Of a stretch of 64,000 nucleotides of DNA, positions 15,037-42,849 are shown piece after piece. The position numbers and the translations under genes were made by a program. How positions within the stretch are numbered: the stretch's first letter is position 1; each line of letters opens with the position of its first letter. The notes under the pieces are model-generated. The model saw nothing but the letters and a program-made list of their open reading frames with translations. It made no database searches and had not been told where the DNA came from. This DNA comes from Thermoproteota archaeon (GTDB lineage Archaea; Thermoproteota; Thermoprotei; Thermofilales; B9-G17), in the NCBI GenBank assembly GCA_029258885.1, contig JAPDJW010000009.1, positions 64,001 through 128,000 of the forward strand. Reading direction: 5' to 3'.

Positions 15037-15047
15037 GAGGTGGTTTT

Positions 15048-17446: not shown

Positions 17447-17454
17447 CGGAATTA

Positions 17455-18428: not shown

Positions 18429-18446
18429 TTGCTTTAAGTTCATCAC
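18213..18446 (-). CDS. Small HTH antitoxin-like protein, copy 1
   Basis: Overlaps the toxin start; GDLYVASRIAGLTIEEFNEL. Confidence 0.72.
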   Translation of the reverse strand: MMNLKQLEKWHRLEEEARRIRRREANWEFINNQPPRIKVALKFYVETGDLYVASRIAGLTIEEFNELRIKANIPNVA

Positions 18447-18570
18447 TATAATATGTAGCGAGGTAGCTTATAGATATTATCTTACAAGCCCCCAGTTTTT
18501 CAGTATTACTGCTATTAGTTTAGCCATAGATATAGAGAGCATTAATATACTCTAGTTGCTTAATTAAACA

Positions 18571-23924: not shown

Positions 23925-24091
23925 AACTATGTGTTAGTATAATAGCAAAATAAGCTTAACGAAGCTTCTTACTTAAGGCGGTTGAAATCACAGAATCTAT
24001 ATGTAGCGTAATTCCTTTAAATACGTAAAGATAAAACTAAATGCATTAGCTAAAGTCGATAAATGGCGGAAAATCTTAGCAGCATTATGTT

Positions 24092-24107
24092 AAAACTTAT
24101 ATACTCT
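24092..24107 (+). promoter_or_regulatory. BRE/TATA-like promoter, identical 16-mer also at 31113-31128
   Basis: AAAACTTATATACTCT, 47 bp upstream of ATG 24155. Confidence 0.65.
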
Positions 24108-24154
24108 AAAGAATAGAATAATTTTGCATATTAGAGTTTTCGGGTGAAGATTTT

Positions 24155-25390
24155 ATGAGGAAGAGTATTTGGATTCTAGCATTACTGCTTTTATCGATAT
24201 CTCTGCCTGCTCTAGTCCGTTCGCAACCTCAATGGGTAACTATTACAGACAACACAATTGTAGCTGAGAACAACTATTACAAGATAACGTTCAACCTAGA
24301 AGTCGGTGGCAGGCTTTCAAGCTGGATAGTAAAGGCTATAGATAAGGATGTAGTTTCTCCCTATCTTCCATTCAACTTAGAGATAGCATTATACTCTGAT
24401 CCAAACGAAATGTATCCATATGCGCAGCAGTTTAAGCCTTGGACCGGAAAGATAACTACAGTTTCTGACGATGTGGTAGTAGTGGAGCTCTGGCCAATAT
24501 ACGACGAAAACGTAACGACACATCTAGAAGGTCTCCTCATAAACGAGACGGTAATATTCTATAAGAACAAGCCATACATAGACGTAATATTCAAGCTGAC
24601 AAACCCAACAAACGATACAGTATACTTAGCTGGCAAGGCTTGGAACTGGCTGGACTTCGGCTTCGGAATAAACATAAACTCCTATGTTGAGGGAGAATCC
24701 ACTGATGATTTCGTACAGATATTCTGTGTCGTAAACGCCACAGGAACATATATTGAAACTGGAAAATGGCATTGGGTAGGAATGGGTCCATGGAGCCATG
24801 GTGAGGGAGCATTCTTCCCATGGGCTGGAATAATAAACGAGAAGCTTAACATAATAGTAGCTGCAAGAGCCTTAGAGCCAAACGGAGTATGGCATATAAA
24901 CTTTGAGAGAGATTACTACGGCTCGCCTGCAATAAGAGCTATGCTAAGATTCAAATCCACATACATAGCTCCAGGAGGTTCAGTGACCTTCGCCTTCAGA
25001 CTAATAGCGACAACGATAGATGATGTACTAGGCACAGAGGAAGCTGGATTAATAGGCTTCGCCAACAAATATAACCCAGGAGCATATGAAGGATTAAAGC
25101 AAGCATCGGAGACAATAACACAGTTACAGTCCCAGATATCAAACCTACAGACACAGATTACACAACTTGAGGAGCAGGTAACAAGCCTACAGGATCAGGT
25201 AAACACTCTACAGAGTGAGCTTTCAGCTAAAACTAGCGAGCTTGAAACAACAAAGTCCGAGTTAGATAAGACAAAGAGTGAGTTAGCTCAGGCACGGTCG
25301 ATGCAGCCAGCGTACCTCGTAGGAGGCTTAATAGTAGGCATCATTATTGGAGTTATTGTAGCAAAATTCCTATTTAAGCCCAAAAAATAA
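24155..25390 (+). CDS. Anchored surface protein: galactose-mutarotase-like beta-supersandwich, coiled-coil stalk, C-terminal TM
   Basis: Signal peptide; ENNYYKITFNLEVGGRLSSW; about 60-aa heptad stalk (ITQLQSQISNLQTQITQL...); TM plus KPKK. Confidence 0.6.
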   Translation: MRKSIWILALLLLSISLPALVRSQPQWVTITDNTIVAENNYYKITFNLEVGGRLSSWIVKAIDKDVVSPYLPFNLEIALYSDPNEMYPYAQQFKPWTGKITTVSDDVVVVELWPIYDENVTTHLEGLLINETVIFYKNKPYIDVIFKLTNPTNDTVYLAGKAWNWLDFGFGININSYVEGESTDDFVQIFCVVNATGTYIETGKWHWVGMGPWSHGEGAFFPWAGIINEKLNIIVAARALEPNGVWHINFERDYYGSPAIRAMLRFKSTYIAPGGSVTFAFRLIATTIDDVLGTEEAGLIGFANKYNPGAYEGLKQASETITQLQSQISNLQTQITQLEEQVTSLQDQVNTLQSELSAKTSELETTKSELDKTKSELAQARSMQPAYLVGGLIVGIIIGVIVAKFLFKPKK

Positions 25391-25480
25391 ATTTCTTTTT
25401 TATTACTAACTTATACGTATCCTGCGTGGGTCTTAAGGTGAGTAAAGTTTAAATTAATATAAAACTCTATATTTCTCAAG

Positions 25481-26593
25481 GTGATTTTTATGAATAAATC
25501 TATTACCGTGACTATACTTTTGCTAGTATTCACATTGTCCATGTTAAAACCTACATTAGTATATCCGCAACCTCAGGCTCTAGCGTATGTCGATAAGGGT
25601 AAGGTTGTACTTGAAAATGATGCTATTAAAGTATACTTTAAGCCTGATGAAGGAGCTAAAATAGTTAGGTGGATTGTAAAAACATTAGCTAATGTAACAC
25701 CCATAACTGAGTCTAGGTATCCATATGAATGGATACCTACCGGAACATGGCCAGGAGAAATATTTAGCGCAAACTTTACTTATCAAATAGTAAAGGAGTC
25801 CGGAGACGAGGCAGTAGTAGAGTTTAAGGTGAACCTAGCCACTGATGCCCCAGGATTGGAGTTCACGAAAATTGTTACCATAAAGGCAGGCGAACACTAC
25901 TGGATAAACATAACATACATCCTCGATAATAAGGGCACAGCGGCGCTCAAAATACAGAACCCACCCGCATGGGGAAGGAAGGCTGGCTTCATGATTGAAA
26001 TAGGCGCTAAAATAGGCCGCAACGATACTAATGATATTCAGATATGGAAGTTCGTCGGTCAGGATCCAATAATAACTAAAGAATCTTGGGTAGTATACCC
26101 ATTAGATAAAACTCCCACCGACACCGAGTGGATAGGATTATTTGATAATTCGACCGATGCCAATATGGTAGATAATGCAACCTATGGATTATTCATAGGG
26201 TTAAAATTGCTGGATCCGTCGGAGGGATGTTTTATATGGCTTGAGGCAGCGGCTGGGTGGACGTCCATTAGAACTGAGCTGAAGCCGCTCACCCTAGAGC
26301 CAGGCCAAGCTAAGATCTACAAGACTATATGGTACTGTGGTCCGATATGGAAGGAATACCTAGAGGAAGCAGGATTCAATGGAGTATTTGAAGCTATAAA
26401 GCCCTCAAACCTACCTGAGGAGCCTCCAGGGGAGAAGAAGGTTGAGGAGAAGCCTAAGGAAATTATACCACCAACAGCCTTACCGTTACAGCTTACATGG
26501 AGCAATATTGTATGGATAGTGGTTGGAATACTAGCTGCTGTAGGTTTCATATTCCTAAAGATTAAGGCCAGAAAGGCTAGGAGTACATCCTAA
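25481..26593 (+). CDS. Anchored surface protein, paralogous beta-supersandwich domain, Pro/Glu/Lys linker, C-terminal TM
   Basis: ENDAIKVYFKPDEGAKIVRW aligns with the preceding gene; PEEPPGEKKVEEKP linker; TM. Confidence 0.6.
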   Translation: MIFMNKSITVTILLLVFTLSMLKPTLVYPQPQALAYVDKGKVVLENDAIKVYFKPDEGAKIVRWIVKTLANVTPITESRYPYEWIPTGTWPGEIFSANFTYQIVKESGDEAVVEFKVNLATDAPGLEFTKIVTIKAGEHYWINITYILDNKGTAALKIQNPPAWGRKAGFMIEIGAKIGRNDTNDIQIWKFVGQDPIITKESWVVYPLDKTPTDTEWIGLFDNSTDANMVDNATYGLFIGLKLLDPSEGCFIWLEAAAGWTSIRTELKPLTLEPGQAKIYKTIWYCGPIWKEYLEEAGFNGVFEAIKPSNLPEEPPGEKKVEEKPKEIIPPTALPLQLTWSNIVWIVVGILAAVGFIFLKIKARKARSTS

Positions 26594-26605
26594 TAGGGTG
26601 AAGCA

Positions 26606-29600
26606 TTGAAAAAGTCTATTTTTATAATAGCCTTACTTATACTTACAATTGCCTTGAGGTTCGGTTTAGCCGATCCATCAGCTTCAGTCAGCATAGATGA
26701 CATCGTCGATTATGTTGAGAAGATAAATGGCTTTAAGCCTAGATTCACGGGATACGAGGGCTGTAGGGAGGCGGCTAGATATATCTTTAATGAGTTTTCA
26801 AAATACCTAGACAACGTTACCTGGGAGACCTACCCTATATTAATACCGTACGATGCTGGTTCCACATTGATTGTTAAAGTCGGCGGTGAGGAGTATTCCT
26901 TTAAGGTATATCCATTTCTACCCAATGATGTACAGACATGCTACGGAGAATATGAGGGAAAATTAGTCTACGTAGGGGATGCAAGCTATACTAGCCTGAA
27001 CGGTAAGGAACTTAATGGAAGCATAGCTGTAGTTGAATTAGACTGCTATATTAGCTGGGTTAGGCTGATAGACTTCGGAGTAAAGGCTGTAGTATTCATA
27101 CCTAAATATGATGTGAATAGGCTTCAAATGGAGGGTAAATACCTAGATATACCCGTAAAGTTTCCAAGAGCGTTATTATCGCTTAATGATAGAGAAAGGA
27201 TAATACGCTTACTTAGGGAGAATATGGAACTGGAAGCCAAGCTTAAAATAGGTATGAAGTGGGAGGTTAAGAGTTGTGACGTAATATACGGCTACATAAA
27301 TGGAGCAAGTAAACCCGATGAAGTGGTGGTGCTACTTTCCCATTTCGATTCCTACTCGTGGGCTCCATCTCTTCCCACGGGAGCTTCTGATGCAATAGGT
27401 ATATCGATACTAATGGAGCTTGCAAGAGTATTCTCTGTAAATAGGCCTGAAAGAAGCATACTATTCGTAGCTGTATCGGGACATTACCAGGGACTTTATG
27501 GCACGAGGATGTTTATTGAGAGACATATTTTAAATGAAAGCGATAGGCTCAATCTTCTAGCTTCAAATAAGAAGATCTTCGTAATCGATCTAAAAGTATT
27601 TGACGATGATTCCAGGGTATCCTTCCTATATGTCTCGTACTTCTATGATGCATCAACAGGAGGAATATCTGTTAGTGCTAGACAGAGGTACGTTGAAGTA
27701 GCTAAAGGTATAGACAAAGTACTAGACTATCTGAGCTCAAACATGCCTGAAGGCTTAGATGAGGAGTACATAAGTCACGAATATGAAATGCTGAGTATAA
27801 GTCAGGGAACAAACGATTGGCAGAGGTTATTTCCACGCCCAATACACATCGATGCTGAAGCATTCTTCAGGGTGGGATTAGCTAGCGTATGCTTTCATAC
27901 CGCATACAGCTTCAGAAAATATCTTGGAACGGAGCTTGATACACCGGAGAGGATAAACTGGGAAAACGTCCTGAAACAAGCGGTATTTATTGAAAGCGTG
28001 GTAAATACTATAGTAAACGATGTTAAATATGGTTTTTTTGAAAATTTAGTTTCAGGATTAGCTACAACTGGACCTAAGAGATCGGGCAGCTATGGTGAGT
28101 CATTTGGGGATTTTGTAGGCAAAATTGTCACATGGGATCCGGATAAGGCAAACTGGGTTCCATTGTCGGAAGCTGGGCTAAAACCAGCTATTGTCTCAAT
28201 TAGATTAGGCGGAGCTACCTTCTCCGGATCCCAGTGGAACGTAAGATTCTACCTATTAACTGATAAAGACGGAGTCTTCACGTTAAATGGTTCGCTCATA
28301 GGCTGGGGAGCCAGCTATGAGGTTAGAGCATACATAATGGATGAAAACTATAACATTATCTATGTTTCAGACTTCGGTAGGCATGGAGGTGAAGTCTGGT
28401 CCAACACTTTTCTCCTAAACGCTCCAATAGTGGGAAGCAAGGATAATCCAAGACTTTTTGTAGTATTCAAGGCATCCGGCATAGTACTGCCTAAAATACT
28501 GGATCCTCTAGTGGTATCCGAACCTCTCTCACAGTCAAACAACCTGTATCCGGATGGAGCATACGAGAACAGCTTTAGTATTGAAGTTCTAGAAGAGGAT
28601 ACGGGCGTACCCCCGGACGCTTACTCCTGGTATATGGATCCGAAGGGTATTGGAGTAGTATTTCTTCAACCCAACTCAAAGGCTCTCGTGGTAATGAGAA
28701 CTAAGGGAAGAGAATACCCGATAGGTTTCATAATAGTTAACTCAGGAGATGCTGGAACAGAAGCTATCTATACGAGATTTCTTGAGAGGATATCCTTAAG
28801 CGTTATGAAGCTAGCCTTAGAGAGGAGAAATAGGCTGAAGAGCTTTGGTGTAACAAACTATATGCTTGAAAAATTCATATCCATGGCTAGTGAAAAGGAG
28901 GCTAAACTCCAAGCCTTAATTGAAGATAAACGCTATGATGAATACTTTGTTGAGTCGGTCGATTTACTGGGGTTAGCATACAATTCATATGCCTTCTCCA
29001 GAGGCCTTTACATGGACGTGATACTCTCAACAGTATTGCTCTTCATACTAATACTTGTCTTCTCAATACTGCTCGAAAAGACTTTAACTGGAGATAAGAG
29101 TGCTAAAATAAGAGCGTTTTCGCTCATATCGATATTTACCGTAACTCTAGTAACCTTATCAATACTTCATCCGGGCTTCACTTTAGCAGCAAATATTATA
29201 ATGGTTGAAATAGGCTTCGTAATGCTACTATTCATAGGCTTAATACTATTCATACTATTCCTGGAGTTCACAGTCTTTCTCCAAACATATAGGAGGGAGA
29301 GGCTCGGCGTCCACTTCATGGAATCCAGAGGAATAGAGGTCGGAGTTCTAGCGATGTCCACGGGAACGGAGTACATGAAGAGGAGGAAAATTAGAACCCT
29401 ATTAACGCTAATATCGATAACAGTAATAGCGTTCGCTCTAGTCACCTTCACATCCGGACAGACGATGATCGTAATCACGCCTAAAGTTTTCGAGCCTGAA
29501 CTTAAGAAGACGCTATACAACGGCATACTCTTGGAGAGAATAGCTACCGTTAACAATCCTCTATCGATAGAGCTATACGAATACCTAAAAATCAAGCTTA

Positions 29601-31054
29601 AGAACATAGGATTAGCCACAATAAAAATATGGTCACTTCAGCCTAGGGGGGCGGCAGGCCAGCAGTTCATAATTCATGCAGTGGATCCGGCTACACTCAG
29701 GAAGATGGATATAAGGGGAATATATGGGCTTATGCCTGAAGAATACGAGTTAGTAGCTAAAAACATAACTCTCATAGAAGGCAAATGGTTTGACGAAACA
29801 GATGTATTTGTCTGTATTATACCCGAAAGCCTACACGAGCTGTTTGAACTGAACGTCGGAGACGAAATACTGATACAGGGGCTTAAGCTTAGGATTATAG
29901 GAATATTTAGCGATACATTGCTGGCGAACTTAAGGGAGATAGATAACCGCGAATTAACGCCAATAATAGGTAGCCAGGGAGGCCTTCCGATACATTCGCG
30001 TCCATCATACACGATTATAGTCCCGGTTAAGCTTGTGATCTATCAGCCATGGCTCACGCAGGGAGTAGGCGTAGACTTCCAGGTAGCGCAGATAACTGCT
30101 AGAGTTGAGGCAGATAAGGAGAGGCTAATGGATATAGCCGAGGAGATAGCGTTAACTCATCCAGGCTTCGATATATTCATAGGCTACGGCGACAAGATAT
30201 ACCACTTGAGTAAAAGAGCGGCGCTCCAGGTGGCTGGACTAGAGTATATGATCATACCCATCATAATTTCGGTATTAAATATTGTAACAATGGTTCTGGC
30301 AGCTGTCTACGAGAGAATGCGTGAAATATTTGTCTACTCTGCCTTAGGCCTAGCCCCGGTACATGTCGGACTAATGTTTCTAGCAGAGTTTTCAGTATAT
30401 GCCATATTTGGATCATTAGTCGGATACACTATAGCGGTAGCTTTCCTCAGAGCGTTTTCCGGCATGGTTGGAATATATCCGAACTATATATCAGCCTACG
30501 TAATGATGACGATAGGAATATCGGTACTGTCGGTACTCGTTGCAACGCTGTATCCAATGTTTAAGATAACTAGGATAGCATTACCTTCGTTAAAGAGGAG
30601 GTGGGAACTGCCCACAAAGCCCGCGGGTGATATCTGGAATATACCATTGCCATTTTTCGCATCCTCAAGAGAGGAGGCTATAGGGGTTCTATGGTATTTA
30701 GCTGAATTTGCTGCAATGCATAGAAGTGAGGAGTTCGGAAAATTTGTAGCAACAAATATCTCCGGAGCAATATCTGAAGATGAGATGGAGCTCAAATTTA
30801 GGGCAAGAATAGCTCCGTGGAGAGCAGGCATAGAGCAGGATGTAGCAATTAAGGCAATGTATTTCAAGGAGAGGAATAACTGGACGTTTAATCTCGTACT
30901 AAAGAGGATAAGTGGAGACTATAGGACATGGAGATCGGCCAACTACGTATTCGTGGATACTGTTAGGAAGCAGTTCCTGCTCTGGAGAAGCCAACCGCCT
31001 GAGAAAAAGAAGGAGTACTTCGAGAAGGGGCTTAAACGTTTTAGCGGAGGATGA
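26606..31054 (+). CDS. Large membrane protein: PA + M28 peptidase-like domain fused to MacB/FtsX-like permease
   Basis: PA-like YEGKLVYVGDA; SHFDS...GASDAIG...SGHYQGL; multiple TMs; FtsX motif VYERMREIFVYSALGLAPVHVGLMFLAEF. Confidence 0.85.
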   Translation: MKKSIFIIALLILTIALRFGLADPSASVSIDDIVDYVEKINGFKPRFTGYEGCREAARYIFNEFSKYLDNVTWETYPILIPYDAGSTLIVKVGGEEYSFKVYPFLPNDVQTCYGEYEGKLVYVGDASYTSLNGKELNGSIAVVELDCYISWVRLIDFGVKAVVFIPKYDVNRLQMEGKYLDIPVKFPRALLSLNDRERIIRLLRENMELEAKLKIGMKWEVKSCDVIYGYINGASKPDEVVVLLSHFDSYSWAPSLPTGASDAIGISILMELARVFSVNRPERSILFVAVSGHYQGLYGTRMFIERHILNESDRLNLLASNKKIFVIDLKVFDDDSRVSFLYVSYFYDASTGGISVSARQRYVEVAKGIDKVLDYLSSNMPEGLDEEYISHEYEMLSISQGTNDWQRLFPRPIHIDAEAFFRVGLASVCFHTAYSFRKYLGTELDTPERINWENVLKQAVFIESVVNTIVNDVKYGFFENLVSGLATTGPKRSGSYGESFGDFVGKIVTWDPDKANWVPLSEAGLKPAIVSIRLGGATFSGSQWNVRFYLLTDKDGVFTLNGSLIGWGASYEVRAYIMDENYNIIYVSDFGRHGGEVWSNTFLLNAPIVGSKDNPRLFVVFKASGIVLPKILDPLVVSEPLSQSNNLYPDGAYENSFSIEVLEEDTGVPPDAYSWYMDPKGIGVVFLQPNSKALVVMRTKGREYPIGFIIVNSGDAGTEAIYTRFLERISLSVMKLALERRNRLKSFGVTNYMLEKFISMASEKEAKLQALIEDKRYDEYFVESVDLLGLAYNSYAFSRGLYMDVILSTVLLFILILVFSILLEKTLTGDKSAKIRAFSLISIFTVTLVTLSILHPGFTLAANIIMVEIGFVMLLFIGLILFILFLEFTVFLQTYRRERLGVHFMESRGIEVGVLAMSTGTEYMKRRKIRTLLTLISITVIAFALVTFTSGQTMIVITPKVFEPELKKTLYNGILLERIATVNNPLSIELYEYLKIKLKNIGLATIKIWSLQPRGAAGQQFIIHAVDPATLRKMDIRGIYGLMPEEYELVAKNITLIEGKWFDETDVFVCIIPESLHELFELNVGDEILIQGLKLRIIGIFSDTLLANLREIDNRELTPIIGSQGGLPIHSRPSYTIIVPVKLVIYQPWLTQGVGVDFQVAQITARVEADKERLMDIAEEIALTHPGFDIFIGYGDKIYHLSKRAALQVAGLEYMIIPIIISVLNIVTMVLAAVYERMREIFVYSALGLAPVHVGLMFLAEFSVYAIFGSLVGYTIAVAFLRAFSGMVGIYPNYISAYVMMTIGISVLSVLVATLYPMFKITRIALPSLKRRWELPTKPAGDIWNIPLPFFASSREEAIGVLWYLAEFAAMHRSEEFGKFVATNISGAISEDEMELKFRARIAPWRAGIEQDVAIKAMYFKERNNWTFNLVLKRISGDYRTWRSANYVFVDTVRKQFLLWRSQPPEKKKEYFEKGLKRFSGG

Positions 31055-31112
31055 ATATTATGGGTTTTAAATATATTTATAAATTCAATGGGATATTAAA
31101 GAAGTTTTCACA

Positions 31113-31128
31113 AAAACTTATATACTCT
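31113..31128 (+). promoter_or_regulatory. BRE/TATA-like promoter, second copy of the 16-mer
   Basis: AAAACTTATATACTCT, 51 bp upstream of ATG 31180. Confidence 0.65.
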
Positions 31129-31179
31129 TAGAGGATATTATTATCTATCCATAACTAATATTAAGGAGGTTCTTTACGT

Positions 31180-33171: not shown

Positions 33172-33181
33172 CCTTTTCTTT

Positions 33182-35080
33182 TTGGTGAATCTAATGGAGG
33201 TTTTAAAGCCTAAAGTATCTTGGCGTGTATACGTTGGATTAATAATAACTGGATTCGTCTTCCTGCCCGTATCCATATGGCTCCAGTGGACGATAGGTCT
33301 AGATACATTCTCTATATTAACATCAATAGAATTCACCGTACTATTGCTTGTTGTGTTTTTCGCATCGCTTTCAGGACAATCTGTAAGTAAACAGGAGGCA
33401 TTCATATTATACGGTAACGCTGGAGCAGTGCTTACACAGACCGTAGCTACTGGGCTCATATTAAGGTGGTACATAAGGTCATCGGAGTGGGCGTATAGGT
33501 TTAAGCTGGCAGACTTGATTCCAAGCTGGTATGCACCGCCTCCAAGCATACCTCATACACTATTTGATGCCTCCTGGATTCCCGTGCTTATAGTCCTAAT
33601 ATTATCGCTCGGAATCGTAGTTAACGCGCTGGATTTGTCGGTAGGGTACATATGCTATTACCTCTGGGGTAGGTTGGAGAAACTACCATTCCCGACGGCC
33701 AGAGCATGGGCTGAAGCAAGCATAGTAATACCCGAGAGACGGAGATACAAGGAGCGATTCATTAGCTCAATAATGGCTGCGCTATTAAGCATGAGTATAA
33801 GCGGAGTAATATTCTTCATATATAGGGAGATATGGGTAGACATGACCTATCTAATGGAGCCGTTCATGCCCGGCTCAACCCTAGCCTTCGTACTAGATGT
33901 CATATCATTTTCTATGGGCTTTATAATACCGTTCAATGTAACTGTTTCAATGTTTATAGGTGCTTTAATATCAAATCTCATAGGACCTCACTTAGCCTAT
34001 AAAGCTGGCCTATTTACTACCTGGCAGCCTGGAATGAGCTTCGACCTAGTATACCAGTATTCACAAGTTGAGCTATGGATGTCGACGACGATCGGCTTTT
34101 CCCTCGCTCTAGCGGCTTATTCACTAGCTAAATACAGGAGGTATTTCATAACAGCCTTCTCCACACTAACAAGAAGAGGAATGATAGGAGAAGAGAAGAC
34201 GCTGAAGTTTGCAGTAACTATATTTATTACCGCTGGCTCTCTTATCGCGTTAATATCATATATACTAGTGGCGAGCGACGTTCCGCTCTGGATGCTCCTA
34301 CTATTCCTTATGCTGGCTATCCCATGGGTACTCGTATACAACCTAGTAGCATCGAGAATAACGGCTGAGACAGGAATGGGTATAGGAATACCATTCCTGA
34401 GAGAAGCTATACTCTTCGGCTCTGGATATAAAGGCGTAGATGCATGGTTCATACCCCTCTTCGATCCATCAGCAGCAACAGGAGCAGCGGCTGCCGGATG
34501 GGCTTCGGTATATATGGCTTGTGACTGGACGGAGACATCGAAGTCGGAGTACCTTAAAGCTTTCGTATTTGCAATGATTCTCGGCTACATCCTATCGTTC
34601 GTTTTCGTAGAGGCTTTCTGGAAGATAGCTCCAATACCCTCCAGAGCATATCCAGCAACGGCTGCAAGATGGCCGCTAATAGCCTACTGGTCCCTGATAT
34701 GGCCAGCCATAGGTAGCGGAAGGCTAGCGGGAACTACATTACCTCCACTAGTGAAGGCACTATTCAGGAACCTTACGATCCAAAATATTAGTGCGGCTTT
34801 TATAGTAGGTCTAGTGCTCCAGGTAGTAACTGTAAGATTTAACCTACCCTTCTCCGTAGCCGCATTTATAGGAGGATTTAGTGGAATGATACCGTATATA
34901 ATAACGATATTTGCAGGCGGTATAGTAAATAAGCTCATAGAGAGGTCTCTTGGAAAGGAGAAATGGGAGAAATATAGAGTAAGCGTAGCCATAGGGCTAC
35001 AGCTGGGAGAGGGTATAATAATTGCAATCTACGCCATGTACCTGATAATACAGAAATCCATGTGGATATGGCCAGTATAG
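33182..35080 (+). CDS. OPT/YSL-like putative transporter
   Basis: LEKLPFPTA, SKQEAFIL, FWKIAPIPSRAYP, VAIGLQLGEG; many TM segments. Confidence 0.7.
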   Translation: MVNLMEVLKPKVSWRVYVGLIITGFVFLPVSIWLQWTIGLDTFSILTSIEFTVLLLVVFFASLSGQSVSKQEAFILYGNAGAVLTQTVATGLILRWYIRSSEWAYRFKLADLIPSWYAPPPSIPHTLFDASWIPVLIVLILSLGIVVNALDLSVGYICYYLWGRLEKLPFPTARAWAEASIVIPERRRYKERFISSIMAALLSMSISGVIFFIYREIWVDMTYLMEPFMPGSTLAFVLDVISFSMGFIIPFNVTVSMFIGALISNLIGPHLAYKAGLFTTWQPGMSFDLVYQYSQVELWMSTTIGFSLALAAYSLAKYRRYFITAFSTLTRRGMIGEEKTLKFAVTIFITAGSLIALISYILVASDVPLWMLLLFLMLAIPWVLVYNLVASRITAETGMGIGIPFLREAILFGSGYKGVDAWFIPLFDPSAATGAAAAGWASVYMACDWTETSKSEYLKAFVFAMILGYILSFVFVEAFWKIAPIPSRAYPATAARWPLIAYWSLIWPAIGSGRLAGTTLPPLVKALFRNLTIQNISAAFIVGLVLQVVTVRFNLPFSVAAFIGGFSGMIPYIITIFAGGIVNKLIERSLGKEKWEKYRVSVAIGLQLGEGIIIAIYAMYLIIQKSMWIWPV

Positions 35081-35147
35081 AGCTGTTTGCTTCAATACTT
35101 ATATATATCGTATCGGGTCGTATAAACCTAAAACCTACATCGTAGAG

Positions 35148-38069
35148 GTGATATGTATGAAAATATCATTATTATTAATAATAGGTCTTCTCATCACAGT
35201 CCTATCCCCGGTTGCACTGTATGTGGTCGCTCAAGATCAGATAGTAGTTAGTGATAAAGGAAGTTTTGTTGTTGTTGACAACGGTGTTCTTAGAATAGAG
35301 TTTCTCAAACAGGGCGTTAGAGCTAGGTCATGGTTAATTAAATCCTCCGGCCTAGATCTTGCTGCGAATTCGGGAAGTAGGGGGGATATGGGTAGGAGCT
35401 ACCCGCTCTGGGATTGGCTTACAAATCAGCCTTGGCCCGGGGAACTGTGCTTAAACACGTACACTTTTAAACTTGTTGAGAAGAGCTCAAGTAAGGCTGT
35501 GCTTGAATTTTCAACAAATATTACTCAAGGCGATGTAGCTGGCCTTACTGTGAAGAAGACTATAGTGGTCTACTACGGTAAATATTACCTCGATATAGTG
35601 GTTACAATAGAGAATCCTACTTCTAAAAGTATAACTATTAGGGACACGTTCTACGATGGCAAGCTGGGCTATACGTTCGCCTGGGCTGGTGTTCTCGGAA
35701 ACTCCGGCCTAAACGATTTACAGGCATGGAAGTACAATGATATAACGATTACAGATAAGAAGGAGCACTTCGTAAGGGATGACGTAACAAACCTAAAGTG
35801 GATAGCCGTATACGATGCTGAGGAGGGATGTATAGCTGCAATAATCATACATAACAAGACTGCGGCTGTATGGAGGGAGGCTGATCCGAACTGGGGCACC
35901 GAGGTTAGGGTTGAGTTCCCCAGCACTACTGTGGGAGCTGGAAAGAAGATAAGCTACGTCTTTAACGTATACGGTGGACCAATAGATGCCAGGTATCTTT
36001 CGGAAATAGGGCTACAGGAAATGGCTAGAAGGTTTTCAATAATAGTTAGAGCTACAACTGATAAAGTGGTATATACGCTGGGAGAGAAGGCTGAGCTTAC
36101 CGTGAACGTAACTAATAATGGAGCTGAAGACCTGAGAGCGGATGTAAAGGTTGATGTATACCTCAAGGGAGTCCTTAAATACAGCACGTATATTGCTGAA
36201 GATGTTACGGTAGCTTCGGGACAAACATATCGAATATCGAAGTACGTTGATTTACCCGCAGGCGAGGGCATAGTTACGTTTATTGTAAAGGTTCTCGAGG
36301 ACGATACTGAGCTGTCGTCCATATTCATAAGAGCTGGAGTAGCTGATCCATCTAAGAGGAAGCCGCTTTACATAGCGTTTGTATGGCATCACCATCAGGC
36401 GCCTAACTTTTATCCAAACGGCGTGTACCACGGTTTATGGGCTTTTGTACATACATATGAAAACGAGTTTTCACCATACTATGAGGGTGGAGCGTACTTA
36501 GTGCATACTTATATACACGAGCAGGTTCCCGAGATAAAGGATAACGACCACCTATCCCCGTCGCTGTTATATCAGTGGCACCAGGCGATAACTGAGGGAT
36601 ATAAGACATCTCCCTATTCCAAGGTTAAGCCTGATGATCCACGTGTCCAGAGAGTTAAGGAGGCTCTCAACAACTATAAGCAACTCTATATGGAGGGTAG
36701 GATAGAGATTTTAACCAGCTTCTTCGCTCACCCCATAGCTGGGTATGAAATTAACTATTTCTCAAGCAAAGGATTCGGCGATACAATATACAGGATACTT
36801 AAGTGGGAGCTTTTATATGGGAAGAAAATTACTGAGGAGGTCACTGGAGCGAAGCCTGAGGGAGCATGGACTCCCGAGATGTTCTGGGATATGAAGCTCG
36901 TGAAGCTATACAATGAGTCTGGCGTAAGATATACGGTTCTATGTAGCCAACATTTCTATCAGTCGAGGGGTGATAAGGGCACTATATACGAACCCTACGT
37001 TGTGGAGGATAAGGATTCGGGAAGAACAATTATAGTATTCTTCCGGGATCAGGGATTAAGCGACTGGATAGGCTTCAATAATAATATGCCCGATGTTTCA
37101 TCGGCTGAGGAAAACGCTAGAAACTACGTGCTGGCTCTCTTTGAACTATACATGGATAACCCCGGAAAACTAGTAGTAATAGCTCTAGATGGAGAAAACT
37201 GGATGCTCATGGCTAGATTCCCATCGACGACGCCAGTATTCCTAAGGAAGATGTGGGAGTATATAGCATCAGCTGAGGTATTTAGAACCGTGACGTTAAA
37301 CGAGGCATTGAAGATAGTTCCGCCGAGAAGAGTATTAACTTACATTCCAACAGGATCCTGGATAGGTCTTACGGCGTCACAGTGGACTGGAGGGGTAAAA
37401 GATCAGCTGTGGAGTTACGTAGCCGATAAAATGAGCACCGTAGATGCATACCTAAGCTTGATACCGAATGAGTACTTTAACCAGCAGGCATTTAATACTT
37501 CCTCTAGGCTGTACGAGGTGTTGAGGGCTATATCGATAGCTTTAGACAGCGACTATTACTGGTACGGAGAATACGAGGGCAATCAGAAGGTAATTAAGAT
37601 GTGGGCCGATAAAGCTGAGGAACTGGCTCTAAGCGAGCTTAGCAAGGTGAAAATTATATCAGTGAATGTGGAGGGAGGTATAAAGGAGGGCGAAGAGGCG
37701 CTGTTTAAAGTAGCTGTCAAGAACGAGTTTCAGTATAACGTGGTAATTAGCCTTAAATTCTCCTCGGATGAGGGCGTAATTGAGACGAAGACATTCAGCG
37801 ATATTAGTGTACCTCCAGGGGAGAGTCAGTACGAGTATAAAGTAAAGTGCATTAAGGGCGGGTCCGGGAGGGTTAGGGTGGATCTAGTGCTTGGAACAAT
37901 TAGTGTATCAAGTATTGAAGTTGAAGTAAGCGCTGAGTCTGTGTTTACTATTCCATCCTACGTAATCGCTATTATAGGCATTATTGTATTCACAGCAATA
38001 ATAGTGGTAATTATAATAAAAGCGAGGAGCATAGCCGAGAAGGAGGGAGCAGGCATACTTAAGTACTAG
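35148..38069 (+). CDS. Secreted, anchored GH57 (amylopullulanase-like) with N-terminal beta-supersandwich and CARDB-like domains
   Basis: WHHHQAP, FAHPI, WTPEM (nucleophile Glu), ALDGENW (acid/base Asp), SDYYW; signal peptide; C-terminal TM. Confidence 0.9.
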   Translation: MICMKISLLLIIGLLITVLSPVALYVVAQDQIVVSDKGSFVVVDNGVLRIEFLKQGVRARSWLIKSSGLDLAANSGSRGDMGRSYPLWDWLTNQPWPGELCLNTYTFKLVEKSSSKAVLEFSTNITQGDVAGLTVKKTIVVYYGKYYLDIVVTIENPTSKSITIRDTFYDGKLGYTFAWAGVLGNSGLNDLQAWKYNDITITDKKEHFVRDDVTNLKWIAVYDAEEGCIAAIIIHNKTAAVWREADPNWGTEVRVEFPSTTVGAGKKISYVFNVYGGPIDARYLSEIGLQEMARRFSIIVRATTDKVVYTLGEKAELTVNVTNNGAEDLRADVKVDVYLKGVLKYSTYIAEDVTVASGQTYRISKYVDLPAGEGIVTFIVKVLEDDTELSSIFIRAGVADPSKRKPLYIAFVWHHHQAPNFYPNGVYHGLWAFVHTYENEFSPYYEGGAYLVHTYIHEQVPEIKDNDHLSPSLLYQWHQAITEGYKTSPYSKVKPDDPRVQRVKEALNNYKQLYMEGRIEILTSFFAHPIAGYEINYFSSKGFGDTIYRILKWELLYGKKITEEVTGAKPEGAWTPEMFWDMKLVKLYNESGVRYTVLCSQHFYQSRGDKGTIYEPYVVEDKDSGRTIIVFFRDQGLSDWIGFNNNMPDVSSAEENARNYVLALFELYMDNPGKLVVIALDGENWMLMARFPSTTPVFLRKMWEYIASAEVFRTVTLNEALKIVPPRRVLTYIPTGSWIGLTASQWTGGVKDQLWSYVADKMSTVDAYLSLIPNEYFNQQAFNTSSRLYEVLRAISIALDSDYYWYGEYEGNQKVIKMWADKAEELALSELSKVKIISVNVEGGIKEGEEALFKVAVKNEFQYNVVISLKFSSDEGVIETKTFSDISVPPGESQYEYKVKCIKGGSGRVRVDLVLGTISVSSIEVEVSAESVFTIPSYVIAIIGIIVFTAIIVVIIIKARSIAEKEGAGILKY

Positions 38070-38080
38070 GGTGCACGGTT

Positions 38081-39991
38081 TTGATTGAAAAGATACTGTG
38101 GGAACATAGGCACGGCTATCAGCCAAGGAGAATAATAGATGGATTTAAACTTAAGGAAAGAGAGAGACATGCTGTTAGAAAGGTTAGGGACAGAATTATA
38201 CATGGATTAAACGAATGTCATGTAGTCTTAGCTCCCGGCTCAGTATATGACGAGATCATAAATACGGTCGATAATAGATCGATAAATATCGAGCCAATAA
38301 CTCTAAAAATGCTTAAAGAATACAATGAGGAGGCATACAATGAGCTACTGGATAAGGTGTTCTCCGGTAGAACGTGGATTGTAGCTACGGCTTACTCACA
38401 TCCAATACAGCCGTTGATGCGCAGCGATAATAGAGACAACTTTCTGATAAACCTTTACTGGAGCTGGAGCTTTTTCTTCGAACTATTCTATAAATATATA
38501 CTTGATAAAACGAGTCCTTCAATAGTAGGATGGTGGATGCCTGAATGCGCCTACACTAAGGAGGCTATGGAGGACACGTATAAGGTAGCTAATGAAGTGG
38601 CTAAGGAATATGGATTCAATGATATATACTTGATCTTGTTCCTTGATGATAGGCAGGTTAAACGGAAGGGAGTCTCGATAGGATTCATTAAGGATAGAGT
38701 GATTGTAGCCATAAGGGATTCAGCATTAAGTAATGCCATAGCATTTAACAGCCTCTTAGCGGATATCCTATGTATATTTAAGGATAAGCTATGCAATGTA
38801 GATTCTCCAATAGGCGAGATGAATGACGCGGAATGCTATGGAGGCAACTATGACCCCAATAAGCCTATAATCCTCGAATACCTTTATCGGATCTTAGAGG
38901 ATGGAGTTAGATGTAGTGACGGCAAGATTGTTAGAATTAAGATGAAGAAGATAATCGGTATAGTTCTTGAAAAACTAGATAGGCTCAACGTAGTCGATGT
39001 ATATGATAATACATCGTGGTCAGATTATGTTCCAACTTTAGATCCTAATCTTAAGGGATCTTGGGATACGGCTTTAATAAGCAAGGGCATATTCTTTCCT
39101 CGGTGGACCGGAATAGATTACATTGAGGATGGTGTTGTAAAGACATATTATTTAATATATAGGCAGAAGATAGGAGATAGGATACAATTAAGAATAGTAA
39201 ATAGCGCCTGGAAGGTCGCATTTAACGTAATTAGGAAGGAGCTCTCCAATAAAGTCTACGAGATAGTAGTGGATTACCTAGATAGGGTGAAGGGAGGCAG
39301 TAAACTGCTTAGGGAGTATTGGCGGGTTTTACTGATAGGTGAAGATGAGGAAAAGCTAATTAGAATTCATCTAGGTGATGTTGACTTAGACGTATATTCA
39401 GGACTTTTAAAGGCTTATTCAAGGGTATGTCAGGATTCGTACATAAGCTGTCCAACCTTCTGGTGGAGCATTGAGAACGAACTGGTTGAAACGTCACTAT
39501 CCCTGATAGCTGGGGGAACGGTACTCTTAATAAACACGCTATTTAAAGCTGGAGACAATAGGTGGAAGAACATCCTTAAAGCATATCGTGAAATACTCCT
39601 TAATTTCGATAAATCAAGCTTCTGGGCTAAGTTCAAGAAGTGCATAGATCTGCAGCTTAATTTACTCTGGGACTACATAGAGAGAAAGAGCAGGGTCAAC
39701 ACGAATTTTCTATCCCGCATAGATCCAACTGACGATTACGAGGTTAATTTAGTGGCGAGAATGCTGTATAATATGGCATTTAGGGACGCAGGTCATCCTG
39801 TATACGAGGGAGATATAAACGTTCATCTAGTCAAGCTTAAGATATTGGAGGCTAGGGGAGAAGGATGCAGCCACTTGGCTAAAAGGGCTATAGCCTTTGA
39901 ATGGAATAAATCAATAAATCCTATGTTCGGGGAGAAAAATATAGTAGTAAGAATAGCTGAAAAACACTATAGATATTTAGAGGTATCTTAA
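38081..39991 (+). CDS. Divergent cytoplasmic GH57-family protein
   Basis: HRHGYQP, YSHPIQPL, WWMPECAY, NDAECYG, SCPTFW; no signal peptide. Confidence 0.65.
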   Translation: MIEKILWEHRHGYQPRRIIDGFKLKERERHAVRKVRDRIIHGLNECHVVLAPGSVYDEIINTVDNRSINIEPITLKMLKEYNEEAYNELLDKVFSGRTWIVATAYSHPIQPLMRSDNRDNFLINLYWSWSFFFELFYKYILDKTSPSIVGWWMPECAYTKEAMEDTYKVANEVAKEYGFNDIYLILFLDDRQVKRKGVSIGFIKDRVIVAIRDSALSNAIAFNSLLADILCIFKDKLCNVDSPIGEMNDAECYGGNYDPNKPIILEYLYRILEDGVRCSDGKIVRIKMKKIIGIVLEKLDRLNVVDVYDNTSWSDYVPTLDPNLKGSWDTALISKGIFFPRWTGIDYIEDGVVKTYYLIYRQKIGDRIQLRIVNSAWKVAFNVIRKELSNKVYEIVVDYLDRVKGGSKLLREYWRVLLIGEDEEKLIRIHLGDVDLDVYSGLLKAYSRVCQDSYISCPTFWWSIENELVETSLSLIAGGTVLLINTLFKAGDNRWKNILKAYREILLNFDKSSFWAKFKKCIDLQLNLLWDYIERKSRVNTNFLSRIDPTDDYEVNLVARMLYNMAFRDAGHPVYEGDINVHLVKLKILEARGEGCSHLAKRAIAFEWNKSINPMFGEKNIVVRIAEKHYRYLEVS

Positions 39992-40869
39992 CCCCATCCT
40001 CCCTGGAATGTTGATAGCGGCTTAGCGTTTTTAGCCTCAGGAGGCAGTACTATCGATACTGGCTTGTTTATATCCTTAATCTTCCACTCGCTGTGTATTT
40101 CGCTTGTAACCGAGCCTACGTTGCTCTTTATCTCCATCTCCATGTCGGATACCGTCTTAAGTACAACATAAGTTTCCTTATCGATCCATACTGTAGATGA
40201 AAACGATTTAATGGTGATATTACCTTGAAGTCCTGTTGGTATGTTCGAGTATCCTGTCGAAATAGTCTCCATTATAATATCTGTAAGCTCCTTTTCACTT
40301 AAGCCGCCGGGAGTTATCTCCACCTTATAGGCATCTCTCCCATCGACTTTCTCTACTCCCTTAACCTCAGCCTTAAGCTTCTCCATTAGAGAGATTGATG
40401 CATTAATCATTTCCTGTCTTTCCCACAATCCCTTCTGGGTAGTCTTATACCACCGGCCGAGTATTTTTATATACATAGTGTCGCCGATTATGTATATCTC
40501 GTAATTCATACCCTGGAATGTATATGCCATCTTCATCTTTTTACTCTTATAGTCAACAGCACCGTGCCCATCCATGTTTATGGTAACAGTAGTACCCATA
40601 ACCTTTGTTTTTATAGACATCGAGAGATCAAACTTATAGGTATTAACGTTCCTCAATGCATCGTACGACTTGGATATAATTTCATCAGCTGAAGGCAAGC
40701 CGCCACCAAACAACCCTGGAAGCAGGAAATATGCAGCAACAGCGGCAACACCTAGGACGGCAATTACAATAATTATTAAAATTATAGTTTTACCTATACC
40801 CTCCTTTTTGGTAGGAGGCGGTGGAGGGGGCGGCGGAGGTAGTTCCCCGCTTAAAAATATTTTCTTCAT
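39988..40869 (-). CDS. Membrane-anchored LolA/LppX-like (DUF6612-type) protein with N-terminal poly-Pro tail
   Basis: P9 run, then TM, then beta-rich domain with EKVDGRDAYKV and VWIDKETY motifs. Confidence 0.55.
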   Translation of the reverse strand: MKKIFLSGELPPPPPPPPPTKKEGIGKTIILIIIVIAVLGVAAVAAYFLLPGLFGGGLPSADEIISKSYDALRNVNTYKFDLSMSIKTKVMGTTVTINMDGHGAVDYKSKKMKMAYTFQGMNYEIYIIGDTMYIKILGRWYKTTQKGLWERQEMINASISLMEKLKAEVKGVEKVDGRDAYKVEITPGGLSEKELTDIIMETISTGYSNIPTGLQGNITIKSFSSTVWIDKETYVVLKTVSDMEMEIKSNVGSVTSEIHSEWKIKDINKPVSIVLPPEAKNAKPLSTFQGGWG

Positions 40870-40943
40870 CTATATCCCCTGTGAAATAGTTAGCAAGGGT
40901 TATTAAAAAAGTAATCGCTTATTCAGAGTAGTTATAAACTAGG

Positions 40944-41720
40944 CTATTTATGCTCACTTCCACATTTCCTAATTAAATATTTTAGGATGTATGCAATCTT
41001 GCTATTCTTAATAATCACTCCTGTATCATACTCTGATTCAAGGGATGTATCGTCCGGAACAGATTCGAATAGTAGGACGTTGTCCTCGCCAATTATAATG
41101 ATGTTAGCCGTTTTTTCAGGGGCTTCTATGAGGAGGGTTTCAAGCTCCGGATCCTTGGATTTCGAAACGATATATACGTTAATGTTAAGTCCTTTTTCCC
41201 TAGCGAATTCCATATCCTCATAGTTGATTATTTTAATTCTTTCATACGTATTTCTAGAAATTACGAAGAATGCCTCACCTTTCTCAACTTGTCTAAGAAA
41301 CATCGAAATAGCGCTATGAATCCCCATACGCCCCTCAACAGTTTTAATAGCTTCATATACTCTCTTACTAGCCTTCCTATAGATTTGCTCTAGATCCTTT
41401 AAAATTAAGTTCTCGAAGTCCTCAAGTTTCTTGATTCGTTTTTCAAAATCAAGCACAAGTTTATGGCGAAGATTCTTTAGCGCAAGCTTAGGGTGTATAA
41501 CGCTGAACTTCATGGGTCTACCGGGTATTCTCAGTATTAGTCCCTTCGACTCAAGATTATTTATGGCGTCATAGATTCTAGTATACGGAATACCGCTGAT
41601 GTCACTTAATTCGCTCGCAGTAGCAGATCCTCGTGCAAGAAGAGCGATATATACCTTAGCTTCGTATTGATCAAGCCCATAGTATTCTAGGTACTTAATG
41701 AGGTTTTCTTCATTGATCAT
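40944..41720 (-). CDS. trmB: TrmB-family transcriptional regulator
   Basis: YGLDQYEAKVYIALL...ASELSDISGIPYTRIYDAINNLESKGL, GRPMKF. Confidence 0.92.
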   Translation of the reverse strand: MINEENLIKYLEYYGLDQYEAKVYIALLARGSATASELSDISGIPYTRIYDAINNLESKGLILRIPGRPMKFSVIHPKLALKNLRHKLVLDFEKRIKKLEDFENLILKDLEQIYRKASKRVYEAIKTVEGRMGIHSAISMFLRQVEKGEAFFVISRNTYERIKIINYEDMEFAREKGLNINVYIVSKSKDPELETLLIEAPEKTANIIIIGEDNVLLFESVPDDTSLESEYDTGVIIKNSKIAYILKYLIRKCGSEHK

Positions 41721-41939
41721 CGGTAAACACCCTAGCAGAAATAATTACCTTGCAAATATATTAAACTTCAGTATCTTAAAGCCTTTTATTTAAGTAAAAT
41801 AATTTTTATATCAATGGAAAAATGAAATCTTAAGTATTCAGTAGCTGAATACAACTATCGAAATATTCTACATGTTCTAAATAGGCGGCTTTGAATAAAT
41901 ATTAATATTTTACTTTAAACCTTAAGAATTAAAAAATAA

Positions 41940-42849
41940 ATATTGTCGGATATCCCGCAATCCACAATGCTACCATAAGTATGCCAGTGATTATCCAGTT
42001 AATAGTAGAGGTGCAAAGCAGTAATACGTCTTTCTCTGAGGGCACTACTGAAACATATACAGCAAGCGTTAAACTTAGGAACGTAGAACACGTAACTAAA
42101 TGATAAAGCAACTTACCCATAAGCAGCGAAGCATACTCTATCGTTAGTGCTATGAAGGAGCTATCAGTAAAACCTAGCACAAATATTGTTGCCAAAACTA
42201 CTATCTCCCCTAACGTAGACCTGCGGATCTAAAGTTCCTAATAAATATCAGTGTAAGCGCTACAGTTAATCCTATTCATCCTTCTCGAGGGGAGGAAGCA
42301 TAGGCTTCAGCTTTCTAGTATATGGATATAAACCTGGAAATGTTCTAGGAAAGATAATAATTTATTCTATGGATATAGAAAAGAGGGAGCTATACATTAA
42401 TACCTGGACAGTGTATTTGAAGTATGTAAAGTCTTTAAAGAAGGTAATTATTAATGAAGTTGAGGCTAATCTCCCGGCTATGATCTCTATCCTTGGGTTA
42501 TTGAGTGGATTGAGTTATATAATCCAAGCAAATATCCCATAAATGTGTATGGATGGATCCTAAAGCTATGCATGGCAGACCTGTAAGCTTTAGAATAGAT
42601 TCTCTTAACCCCAACGTCTGGCTTCCTCAAGGTACGGTTATTCCGGCTAAAGGGTACATACTTGTGGGATATAGGCTTCAATGGCTGGACAATAGGATGG
42701 AGGTGGTACAGCTATACGATAGGTATGGGAATTTAATGGATTTCTCAGCCATGAAAAGCGATTGGAGCAACAATGATTATACTTGGCAACGGATACCTGA
42801 CGAAGGGAATTACTGGAAGTTTAAGTATAAAAACGCCAGCAACCCGTAA
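41940..42849 (+). pseudogene. Degraded surface-protein gene with C-terminal lamin-tail (LTD) domain
   Basis: KVIINEVEAN (from 42441), frameshift, PGYDLYPWVIEWIELYNP...GWIL, frameshift, ...WLDNRMEVVQLYD...TWQRIPD. In-frame stops occur upstream. Confidence 0.7.

Follow-up and report, generated by a model that had tools for sequence, protein, structure and literature searches.

Gene content of the locus

We analysed a 64,000-nucleotide stretch of DNA from an uncultured Thermoproteota archaeon (contig JAPDJW010000009.1, positions 64,001 to 128,000; called the window below) and focused on a putative alpha-glucan utilisation locus. Its transport core would consist of a giant membrane protein with two FtsX modules and two polytopic permeases with the fold of oligopeptide transporters (OPT). 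Genes were called as open reading frames (ORFs), domains were assigned with Pfam, and membrane topologies were derived from hydropathy. The locus core (24155-39991) comprises seven genes on the forward strand, with intergenic gaps of 10-125 bp, and it is flanked by a divergent gene and by a gene for a regulator of the TrmB family. ORFs and Pfam matches bore out this layout, which had been described in an earlier note on this DNA, and Pfam and hydropathy likewise confirmed its description of a fusion protein with M28-like and FtsX parts, two OPT-like proteins, and a surface as well as a cytoplasmic enzyme of glycoside hydrolase (GH) family 57.

The gene for the giant (26606-31054) encodes 1482 amino acids (aa). 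The protein matched Peptidase_M28 with 49.6 bits, FtsX (PF02687) with 34 bits, and MacB_PCD with 26.1 bits, the latter just below the cut-off of 27. It is followed by the genes for a DUF6785 permease (31180-33171; PF20581, 105.8 bits) and for an OPT-like permease (33182-35080; PF03169, 33.9 bits versus a cut-off of 25.8). These three genes are referred to as the triplet.

The remaining four genes of the core encode surface proteins and enzymes. Surface protein A (24155-25390, 411 aa) has a signal peptide, a beta-rich ectodomain, a coiled-coil stalk at about aa 300-390, and a C-terminal transmembrane (TM) anchor, a layout resembling that of SlaB. Surface protein B (25481-26593, 370 aa) has a signal peptide, a supersandwich module, a C-terminal TM anchor, and a weak match to the YidC periplasmic domain (YidC_periplas). 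The earlier note had called both proteins stalked; both are indeed secreted and anchored, but the coiled-coil stalk is present only in the first. The supersandwich module of surface protein B recurs at the N-terminus of the surface-anchored GH57 (phmmer, E 1e-22), and surface protein B is a candidate glucan-binding protein. The surface GH57 itself (35148-38069; PF03065, 100.8 bits) is amylopullulanase-like and carries a signal peptide and a C-terminal TM helix. Residues 378-872 matched structure 7e1y with an E value of 3e-87, which is the amylopullulanase of S. marinus (PMC12106739). The last gene (38081-39991) encodes a cytoplasmic GH57-related enzyme devoid of a signal peptide, with an N-domain resembling that of maltose-forming alpha-amylases (PSMA-like_N, PF22159, 50.5 bits; 4cmr, E 5e-7). 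Its relationship to GH57 is confined to this PSMA-like N-domain.

The divergent gene (21372-23924, reverse strand) encodes a surface protein of 850 aa with a signal peptide and a C-terminal TM anchor. It had been described as a GH gene; Pfam and NCBIfam scans yielded no match, and the protein is a candidate glycosidase of the GH36/GH31 clan by virtue of language-model look-alikes, which are clusters of Melibiase/raffinose-synthase-like proteins with similarities of 0.93-0.94 and are to be read as a lead only. On the other side, a convergent gene (39988-40869, reverse strand) encodes a membrane-anchored DUF6612 protein according to Pfam and hydropathy, and its membership in the system is uncertain. 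Next to it lies the TrmB-family gene (40944-41720, reverse strand). The TrmB helix-turn-helix (HTH) domain was found (81.9 bits). The protein has only 258 aa, a TrmBL2-like length, it aligned best to a TrmBL2-type model, and every NCBIfam TrmB model scored far below its cut-off. Therefore, it offers weak evidence for sugar sensing.

As had been noted earlier, neither an ATP-binding cassette (ABC) ATPase nor a solute-binding protein nor a MalFG-type permease is encoded at the locus, and the flanks likewise lack a MacB-type ATPase, a binding protein, and a MalFG permease. The nearest ABC genes (42850-46364) encode two exporters in which ABC_membrane and ABC_tran are fused. Pfam and NCBIfam scans of the locus genes detected neither SusC nor SusD families. 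Taken together, the locus co-locates surface proteins, which would bind glycans, with glycosidases, a transporter, and a regulator, and the same holds true for paralogous loci.

Architecture of the giant protein

Read from the N-terminus of the giant, TM1 leads into about 780 aa of ectodomain with an M28/PA-like head. TM2-4 come next and are separated by an amphipathic helix from TM5; a periplasmic core domain of the MacB type then connects to TM6-8, and about 160 aa of cytoplasmic tail complete the chain. An AlphaFold2 (AF2) model of aa 790-1482 (pLDDT 79) matched MacB (5gko/5lil), LolCDE, and the single-chain YbbAP with E values from 1e-7 to 8e-11, and it also matched HrtBA and YtrEF. Because the fold of the C-terminal half matches MacB, LolCDE, and YbbAP, we concluded that the giant contains two FtsX modules in one chain. 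The hallmark of the FtsX fold, four TM helices with a large extracytoplasmic domain between the first and the second, is found twice in the chain.

The two modules differ in the coupling helix. It is present in module 2 (aa 1237-1251; 30314-30358, forward strand) with the consensus ERxREIxIYSALGLSP and is partly invariant in the paralogues, whereas the AF2 model of module 1 has about five residues in its place. Also the M28 metal site (27341-27502, forward strand) has been altered. In an alignment to the aminopeptidase 2ek8, which does not extend to the later ligands, H246-x-D248 and D262 are retained and the canonical Glu-Glu pair is replaced by H293-Y294. Three residues around the altered site, G292, L297, and G299, are invariant across the eight paralogues of the giant described below. 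As the Glu-Glu pair reads His-Tyr, the head is unlikely to be a normal aminopeptidase.

The tail (30578-31051, forward strand) is a conserved cytoplasmic alpha/beta domain that is also present in bacterial homologues. It matched no Pfam family and a search of the atlas gave no usable match; for aa 320-790 the atlas returned only the protein's own family. The eight paralogues share a pairwise identity of just 24-28%, and conservation is distributed unequally along the chain. The highest values were obtained for the start of the tail (aa 1321-1360, 0.66) and the coupling helix (aa 1241-1280, 0.61). The M28 zone came next with 0.59, then the last part of the tail with 0.56, and most of the ectodomain is less conserved. 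The conservation of the cytoplasmic coupling helix and tail relative to the ectodomain suggests that all eight giants interact with a common cytoplasmic partner, and that their external portions vary.

Two homologous permeases with an OPT fold

The OPT-like and the DUF6785 proteins are homologous over their full length (hhalign 99.9%, E 8e-31, 580 columns). An AF2 model of the OPT-like protein, generated from an alignment of 72 sequences, had a pLDDT of 89.9 and a pTM of 0.90. Its sole significant match in the PDB was Yellow-Stripe 1 (YS1) of barley (7wst/7wsr), with TM-scores of 0.67/0.70 and an E value of 2e-8. Sequence searches of the PDB with profiles of the OPT-like and the DUF6785 proteins retrieved nothing, and the relationship emerged by fold search. 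Because the two permeases are homologous and the model of one of them has an OPT fold, both can be regarded as OPT-fold proteins, and a hetero-pair is plausible on the basis of the model. The OPT-like family is large; about 340 cluster representatives were found at E 1e-30 among 1.84 billion proteins.

Eight modules and their catabolic neighbours in one genome

The genome that contains the window (G000) has a size of 2.1 Mb and is 99.9% complete. Paralogues were searched with phmmer against the whole genome, and the neighbours were annotated with Pfam. Giants (1471-1520 aa) and OPT-like genes were each found eight times and DUF6785 genes seven times, and they are grouped into eight loci. A survey of the neighbourhoods had been proposed in the earlier note, and it revealed genes for carbohydrate-active enzymes (CAZymes), sugar catabolism, or muropeptide catabolism next to seven of the eight.

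The enzyme sets of the loci are different. The triplet in the window is accompanied by the two GH57 genes. The locus at 75-90 kb of contig C1 contains a GH130 gene (mannoside), a full-length TrmB gene, and a paralogue of surface protein A, and that at 157-175 kb of C1 contains a GH94 gene (beta-glucan), a Glycoamylase/DUF3131 gene, a gene for an Lrp-type regulator, and another paralogue of surface protein A. On C2, the triplet is found together with a Leloir set (GalK, GalT, GalE), a PfkB kinase, an 872-aa Melibiase/GH31-like (alpha-galactosidase-like) protein, and a second FtsX protein; on C4, it is found with DUF6259 and a second FtsX protein. Anhydro-MurNAc kinase (AnmK), a secreted MurNAc-L-Ala amidase (Amidase_2), GHL10, and a URO-D-like protein are encoded at 195-204 kb of C1 (MurNAc, N-acetylmuramic acid), and GH3, a diaminopimelate-type decarboxylase, a C39-like peptidase, and a propeller/Ig surface protein at 205-219 kb of C1. 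The last of the eight triplets is located on C3.

To quantify the association, a list of families fixed beforehand was used (GH13, 15, 31, 38, 2, 5, 1, and 3, plus GH57). Eight matches were found in the genome, and four of them lie within 9 kb of a triplet, in zones that make up 9.8% of the genome. By a binomial calculation, this has a probability of about 0.005, which rises to 0.02 when the GH57 pair is counted only once. The association of GH genes with triplets in this genome is thus real, yet not exclusive.

Two features of this genome were observed in addition. The two adjoining triplets at 186-219 kb of C1 (loci L009 and L010) are embedded in peptidoglycan-salvage genes of the bacterial type, and the gene sets suggest that this archaeon scavenges bacterial cell-wall fragments. 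Furthermore, about seven FtsX proteins of intermediate size (957-1355 aa) that lack an M28 match are encoded on C1, C2, C3, C4, and C14. Those of 957 and 987 aa abut the triplets on C2 and C4, and one of 1133 aa lies 2.6 kb from the sole GH1 gene.

Distribution of the module in archaea and bacteria

Next, 301 sampled genomes of Thermoproteota were surveyed. A giant with the tail was found in 70 of the 301 genomes and in 28 of 123 genera, with a patchy distribution by family. The nearest non-self relatives of the giant are only 28% identical and include proteins from Kiritimatiellae and Planctomycetes.

In different genomes of the phylum, the neighbours of 20 loci were analysed. An OPT-like gene adjoins the giant in 17-18 of these 20 loci, and a DUF6785 gene is located within 8 kb in about 16. 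The other neighbours encode GH42, GH10, NamZ, and GH57 (two each) as well as the sugar-acid and sugar dehydrogenase families MR_MLE and GFO/IDH (four each), and triplets of other genomes repeatedly have NamZ and URO-D-like genes as neighbours. On metagenomic contigs of bacteria, the pair of giant and permease is found next to genes for GH42, GH9, alpha-L-fucosidase, glycosylasparaginase, and sulfatase. In a family of 56 member sequences (P0017, 2120 aa), the giant, including the tail, is naturally fused to DUF6785. The eight triplets, the synteny, and this fusion support the earlier proposal that the giant, the DUF6785 protein, and the OPT-like protein constitute a conserved module.

Two differences were observed in Latescibacterota. 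The OPT-like partner has about 806 aa in these bacteria (L244-L277), about 170 aa more than in archaea. Many of their genomes also encode a second class of giants, with DUF6785 a few kilobases upstream and without an adjoining OPT-like gene.

A probable MacB-type ATPase partner encoded in trans

None of the eight giants of G000 has an ABC ATPase gene beside it, whereas most genes for short FtsX proteins (about 390 aa) do. However, the genome contains an orphan gene for a MacB-type ATPase (C2, 342683-343423), which is situated between the THUMP and eIF-1A genes. The orphan ATPase is 72% identical to a second copy, and the gene of the latter adjoins that of a 220-aa FtsX protein without an ectodomain. 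This highly conserved ATPase subfamily was found, with identities of at least 63%, in 73 of the 301 genomes, mostly with two copies each. It is present in 67 of the 70 genomes with a giant, but only in 6 of the 231 genomes without one, and four of these six matches have identities of 55-59%. The coincidence extends to mixed families. In family f2, genus g3 has both the giant and the ATPase and genus g2 has neither; in family f10, both are found in genus g45 and neither in the rest.

Positional evidence came from genomes in which the genes are linked. The complete archaeal genome G046 has a single giant, and its locus encodes, in this order, a supersandwich protein, the giant, DUF6785, the OPT-like protein, and a GH57. 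As the gene order matches, this is the counterpart of the locus in the window. Directly beside this sole triplet, and divergent from it, are genes for a short FtsX protein and two ATPases (L155, 10479-12543). In the related complete genome G198, the distance between the giant and the ATPase pair is about 7 kb. A comparison with 7e1y showed that the GH57 of the G046/G198 locus is not the structurally solved enzyme of S. marinus.

The linkage is not confined to archaea. On a bacterial contig, an orphan ATPase gene is located 3.2 kb upstream of DUF6785 and the giant, and its product is 60% identical to the archaeal orphan. Its relatives are proteins of Latescibacterota and Gemmatimonadota, which are orphans as well. 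Among 36 Latescibacterota loci, each locus with DUF6785, giant, and OPT genes and with enough upstream DNA (L245-L249 and L273) has a gene of this ATPase subfamily 0.7-5 kb upstream on the same strand, and the same holds true for L020/L021. A short FtsX gene is absent from these loci, and other giant paralogues in these genomes have no ATPase nearby. A search for related loci with the orphan ATPase as query was dominated by generic MacB-type ATPases with 44-54% identity, and the signal of the subfamily was not usable.

In addition, a complex of the C-terminal half of the giant with one orphan ATPase was predicted. The score was 0.61, compared with 0.01 for the best control; in the benchmark, 58 of 80 solved complexes scored at least this high, as did 2 of 110 mismatched pairs. 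At least 80% of the contacts agreed between runs, and the pLDDT of the partners was at least 78. On the giant, the predicted interface comprises the coupling helix, the helix 905-926, and the tail. Because complexes of MacB and LolCDE have already been solved, the score may partly reflect likeness to them. The prediction thus indicates that a docking surface has been retained; it does not prove binding.

From the phyletic pattern, the linkage in other genomes, and the predicted docking, we are fairly confident that the giants are served by this subfamily of MacB-type ATPases encoded in trans. The term ATPase-less, which had been applied to the machine in the earlier note, is therefore probably wrong, and a dedicated ATPase partner encoded elsewhere very probably exists.

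The ATPases occur together with a further small protein. The single-copy set of G000 consists of an ectodomain-less FtsX protein of the 190-220-aa class and two ATPases of about 70% identity (C2, 376287-377675 and 342683-343423). Short FtsX proteins of about 200 aa were found in 64 of the 301 genomes, with the same phyletic pattern as the giants.

Proposed mode of action and alternative explanations

With slightly more belief than doubt, we favour the reading that the window contains an alpha-glucan utilisation locus in which one of eight paralogous modules, each with a giant and two OPT-fold permeases, serves as the transport core, and that this core is powered by an ATPase encoded in trans. 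The surface-anchored binding proteins and the surface GH57 would capture and cut the alpha-glucan. The giant would be powered by a dedicated pair of MacB-type ATPases, which would be encoded once elsewhere and be common to all eight modules. ATP-driven motion of the giant's head and periplasmic core, in the manner of type VII mechanotransmission, might then load or gate the OPT-fold pair with oligosaccharides, the pair would move them inward across the membrane, and the cytoplasmic GH57-like enzyme would complete the breakdown. A glycan locus resembling a polysaccharide utilisation locus (PUL), as had been suggested earlier, is supported by the gene context, that is, by the surface-anchored proteins, the hydrolases, and the cytoplasmic sugar-catabolic enzymes. 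The broader proposal of a new class of uptake systems, in which a type VII motor with a shared trans-acting ATPase uses a pseudo-peptidase head to load oligosaccharides or muropeptides into an OPT-fold heterodimer, is made tentatively and with rather more doubt than belief.

Several observations weigh against alpha-glucan import by an ATP-driven module. The triplet on C3 has only a C25-like peptidase gene nearby, and some bacterial loci, one metagenomic contig among them, are CAZyme-free. Half of the eight matches to the chosen GH families (GH31, GH38, GH2, and GH1) are located away from triplets. Elsewhere, the genome encodes three sugar ABC importers of the CUT1 type, which were assigned to this type solely from their size and gene layout, and two of the three lie near full-length TrmB genes; therefore, the module is not the sole possible route for sugars. 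The two ATPases are unlinked to any triplet in G000, the co-occurrence numbers overstate independence due to the relatedness of the counted genomes, and one ATPase copy adjoins the short FtsX gene, so that the ATPases might belong to that small system only. It is also puzzling how a giant with a coupling helix only in module 2 would hold two ATPase subunits. Dimerisation of the giant, a second subunit held by the tail, or participation of the short FtsX protein are possible solutions. Finally, no type VII ABC system is known to import, all characterised ones acting on partners outside the membrane, and OPT proteins are known for peptides and metal chelates as substrates rather than for sugars.

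Four other explanations were weighed. A three-component importer that truly lacks an ATPase, with the FtsX part as a scaffold or lid and the proton gradient alone driving the OPT-fold pair, is unlikely. OPT transporters are established as secondary carriers, an ATPase gene is found in none of the eight loci of G000 nor in most loci elsewhere, and FtsX module 1 has lost the coupling helix; yet few parts of the giant are as well conserved as its tail and the coupling helix of module 2. Moreover, the distribution of a specific ATPase subfamily, predicted to dock, follows that of the giants from genome to genome and in both domains, with genes in cis in Latescibacterota and two complete archaeal genomes. 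We regard it as a little less likely that the database labels are right and that peptides or glycopeptides are taken up, so that the nearby sugar genes would reflect the use of peptidoglycan or glycoproteins. The locus in the window and the GH94, GH130, and Leloir loci are devoid of peptidase and peptide-catabolic genes, and the general base of M28 is lost. Nevertheless, peptides are substrates of the OPT family, the head is aminopeptidase-like, two loci contain muropeptide-salvage genes (AnmK, Amidase_2, GH3, and the diaminopimelate-type decarboxylase), NamZ and URO-D recur in other genomes, and one locus has a C25-like peptidase.

The giant might also not be part of an importer, but rather extract, position, or activate anchored surface proteins and hydrolases in a LolCDE- or FtsEX-like manner, with the OPT-fold proteins acting separately. 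Such a role, which we consider improbable, would agree with the established action of all characterised type VII ABC systems outside the membrane and with the C-terminally anchored surface proteins encoded at every archaeal locus. It is difficult to reconcile with the close pairing to OPT-fold genes, which is often exclusive, with the P0017 fusion, and with the absence of such surface proteins from some bacterial loci. The lowest probability is given to the view that the short FtsX protein constitutes a self-contained, unrelated ABC system together with the ATPase pair, and that the distribution shared with the giants is due to common descent. While one ATPase copy adjoins a short FtsX gene in most genomes, the Latescibacterota loci have the ATPase beside DUF6785, giant, and OPT genes in the absence of a short FtsX gene, and presence and absence of giant and ATPase match also within mixed families.

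Comparison with known systems

With type VII ABC systems (MacB, LolCDE, FtsEX, HrtBA, BceAB, and YbbAP), the giant shares the four-TM fold of FtsX, the extracytoplasmic domain between TM1 and TM2, the MacB-type periplasmic core, and the coupling helix. YbbP and BceB likewise have two FtsX modules per chain. However, only the giant has an M28/PA-like head of about 780 aa in module 1, no coupling helix in that module, and an extra tail of 160 aa, and the module is further set apart by an ATPase that is mostly not encoded beside the giant, by the obligate OPT-fold pair, and by a catabolic context of the import type. The permeases have the same fold as transporters of the OPT/Yellow-Stripe-like family (TC 2.A.67; barley YS1, 7wst; TM-scores 0.67-0.70), with a weak Pfam match above the threshold. 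In contrast to that family, they are very divergent (16% identity), they occur as paired distant paralogues that are always accompanied by a giant FtsX protein, and their gene context points to oligosaccharides or muropeptides rather than known OPT substrates.

In Sus-like PULs of Bacteroidota, genes for surface binding proteins and for glycosidases on the surface and inside the cell are likewise clustered with those for a transporter and a regulator, and one genome can have several paralogous loci with differing enzymes. The archaeal locus differs in that SusC/SusD, an outer membrane, and TonB are absent, and in that the transporter is an unrelated inner-membrane module of three proteins. One ATPase set apart from many paralogous permease loci is also found in the multitask ABC ATPases MsiK and MsmK. 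Those serve type I importers of the MalFG type with solute-binding proteins, whereas the ATPase of the module is MacB/LolD-like and would be shared. The duplicated orphan permeases of the ADOP type (TIGR03434) have a duplicated FtsX part, many paralogues, and no adjacent ATPase, and they were matched weakly; the giant scored 31.6 bits versus a cut-off of 622, and ADOP proteins have neither an M28 head nor OPT partners. Nicalin, the transferrin receptor, and other inactive M28/PA proteins also consist of a membrane-anchored M28/PA ectodomain with a lost catalytic site, and Nicalin was among the matches of the giant's head. We know of no association of such proteins with FtsX or with a transporter.

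All parts of the module thus belong to known superfamilies (type VII ABC, OPT, the inactive M28/PA domain, and GH57), and a description of their combination was not found in the literature. The literature search retrieved no paper on DUF6785 and none of relevance on combinations of FtsX, M28, OPT, glycoside hydrolases, and archaeal PULs. A paper on Tardisphaera mentions only ABC transporters and "porters" (PMC12542729). New are the eight-fold expansion in an archaeon, the PUL-like context with diverse substrates, which is a first clue to the substrates, and a candidate cognate ATPase.

If the module imports glycans, genome-based interpretations of metabolism would change for many uncultured Thermoproteota (70 of the 301 sampled genomes) and for several bacterial phyla. 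Current labels such as "oligopeptide transporter", "M28 peptidase", and "antimicrobial peptide permease" feed the inference of a peptide-based life. The module would then be a transporter architecture without a described counterpart, combining type VII ABC with an OPT fold, and it would represent the first case of import by a MacB-type ABC protein and of carbohydrates as substrates of the OPT fold, as well as an archaeal and PVC/FCB-group bacterial counterpart of the Sus-type PULs. The eight-fold expansion with distinct enzyme sets is a natural experiment on the determinants of substrate specificity, two of the loci hint at the archaeal use of bacterial cell walls mentioned above, and the identification of the likely ATPase makes a reconstitution possible.

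Additional observations in the window

A scan of 23500-42500 for promoters and terminators of the bacterial type, which is ill-suited to archaea, found no excess over shuffled sequences. DNA of the window occurs in hydrothermal-vent and sediment metagenomes of several studies, and no RNA runs are listed. The housekeeping proteins have their best matches, at 50-55%, in metagenome-assembled genomes of Desulfurococcales and Bathyarchaeia.

Several further genes were noticed. A gene pair at 14329-15770 encodes tandem proteins of 235-240 aa with weak TrmB-type HTH matches, one of which also matched a ribbon-helix-helix domain and the other coiled-coil families. Upstream of the locus, the region 16295-19950 contains a gene for a GT4 glycosyltransferase, the GT4 domains of which were confirmed by Pfam, and an ORF of 459 aa without a Pfam match. 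A long ORF of 1569 aa, also without a Pfam match (56688-61397, reverse strand), adjoins the gene of a 659-aa protein with weak DUF4350/ThuA-like matches (54528-56507, reverse strand).

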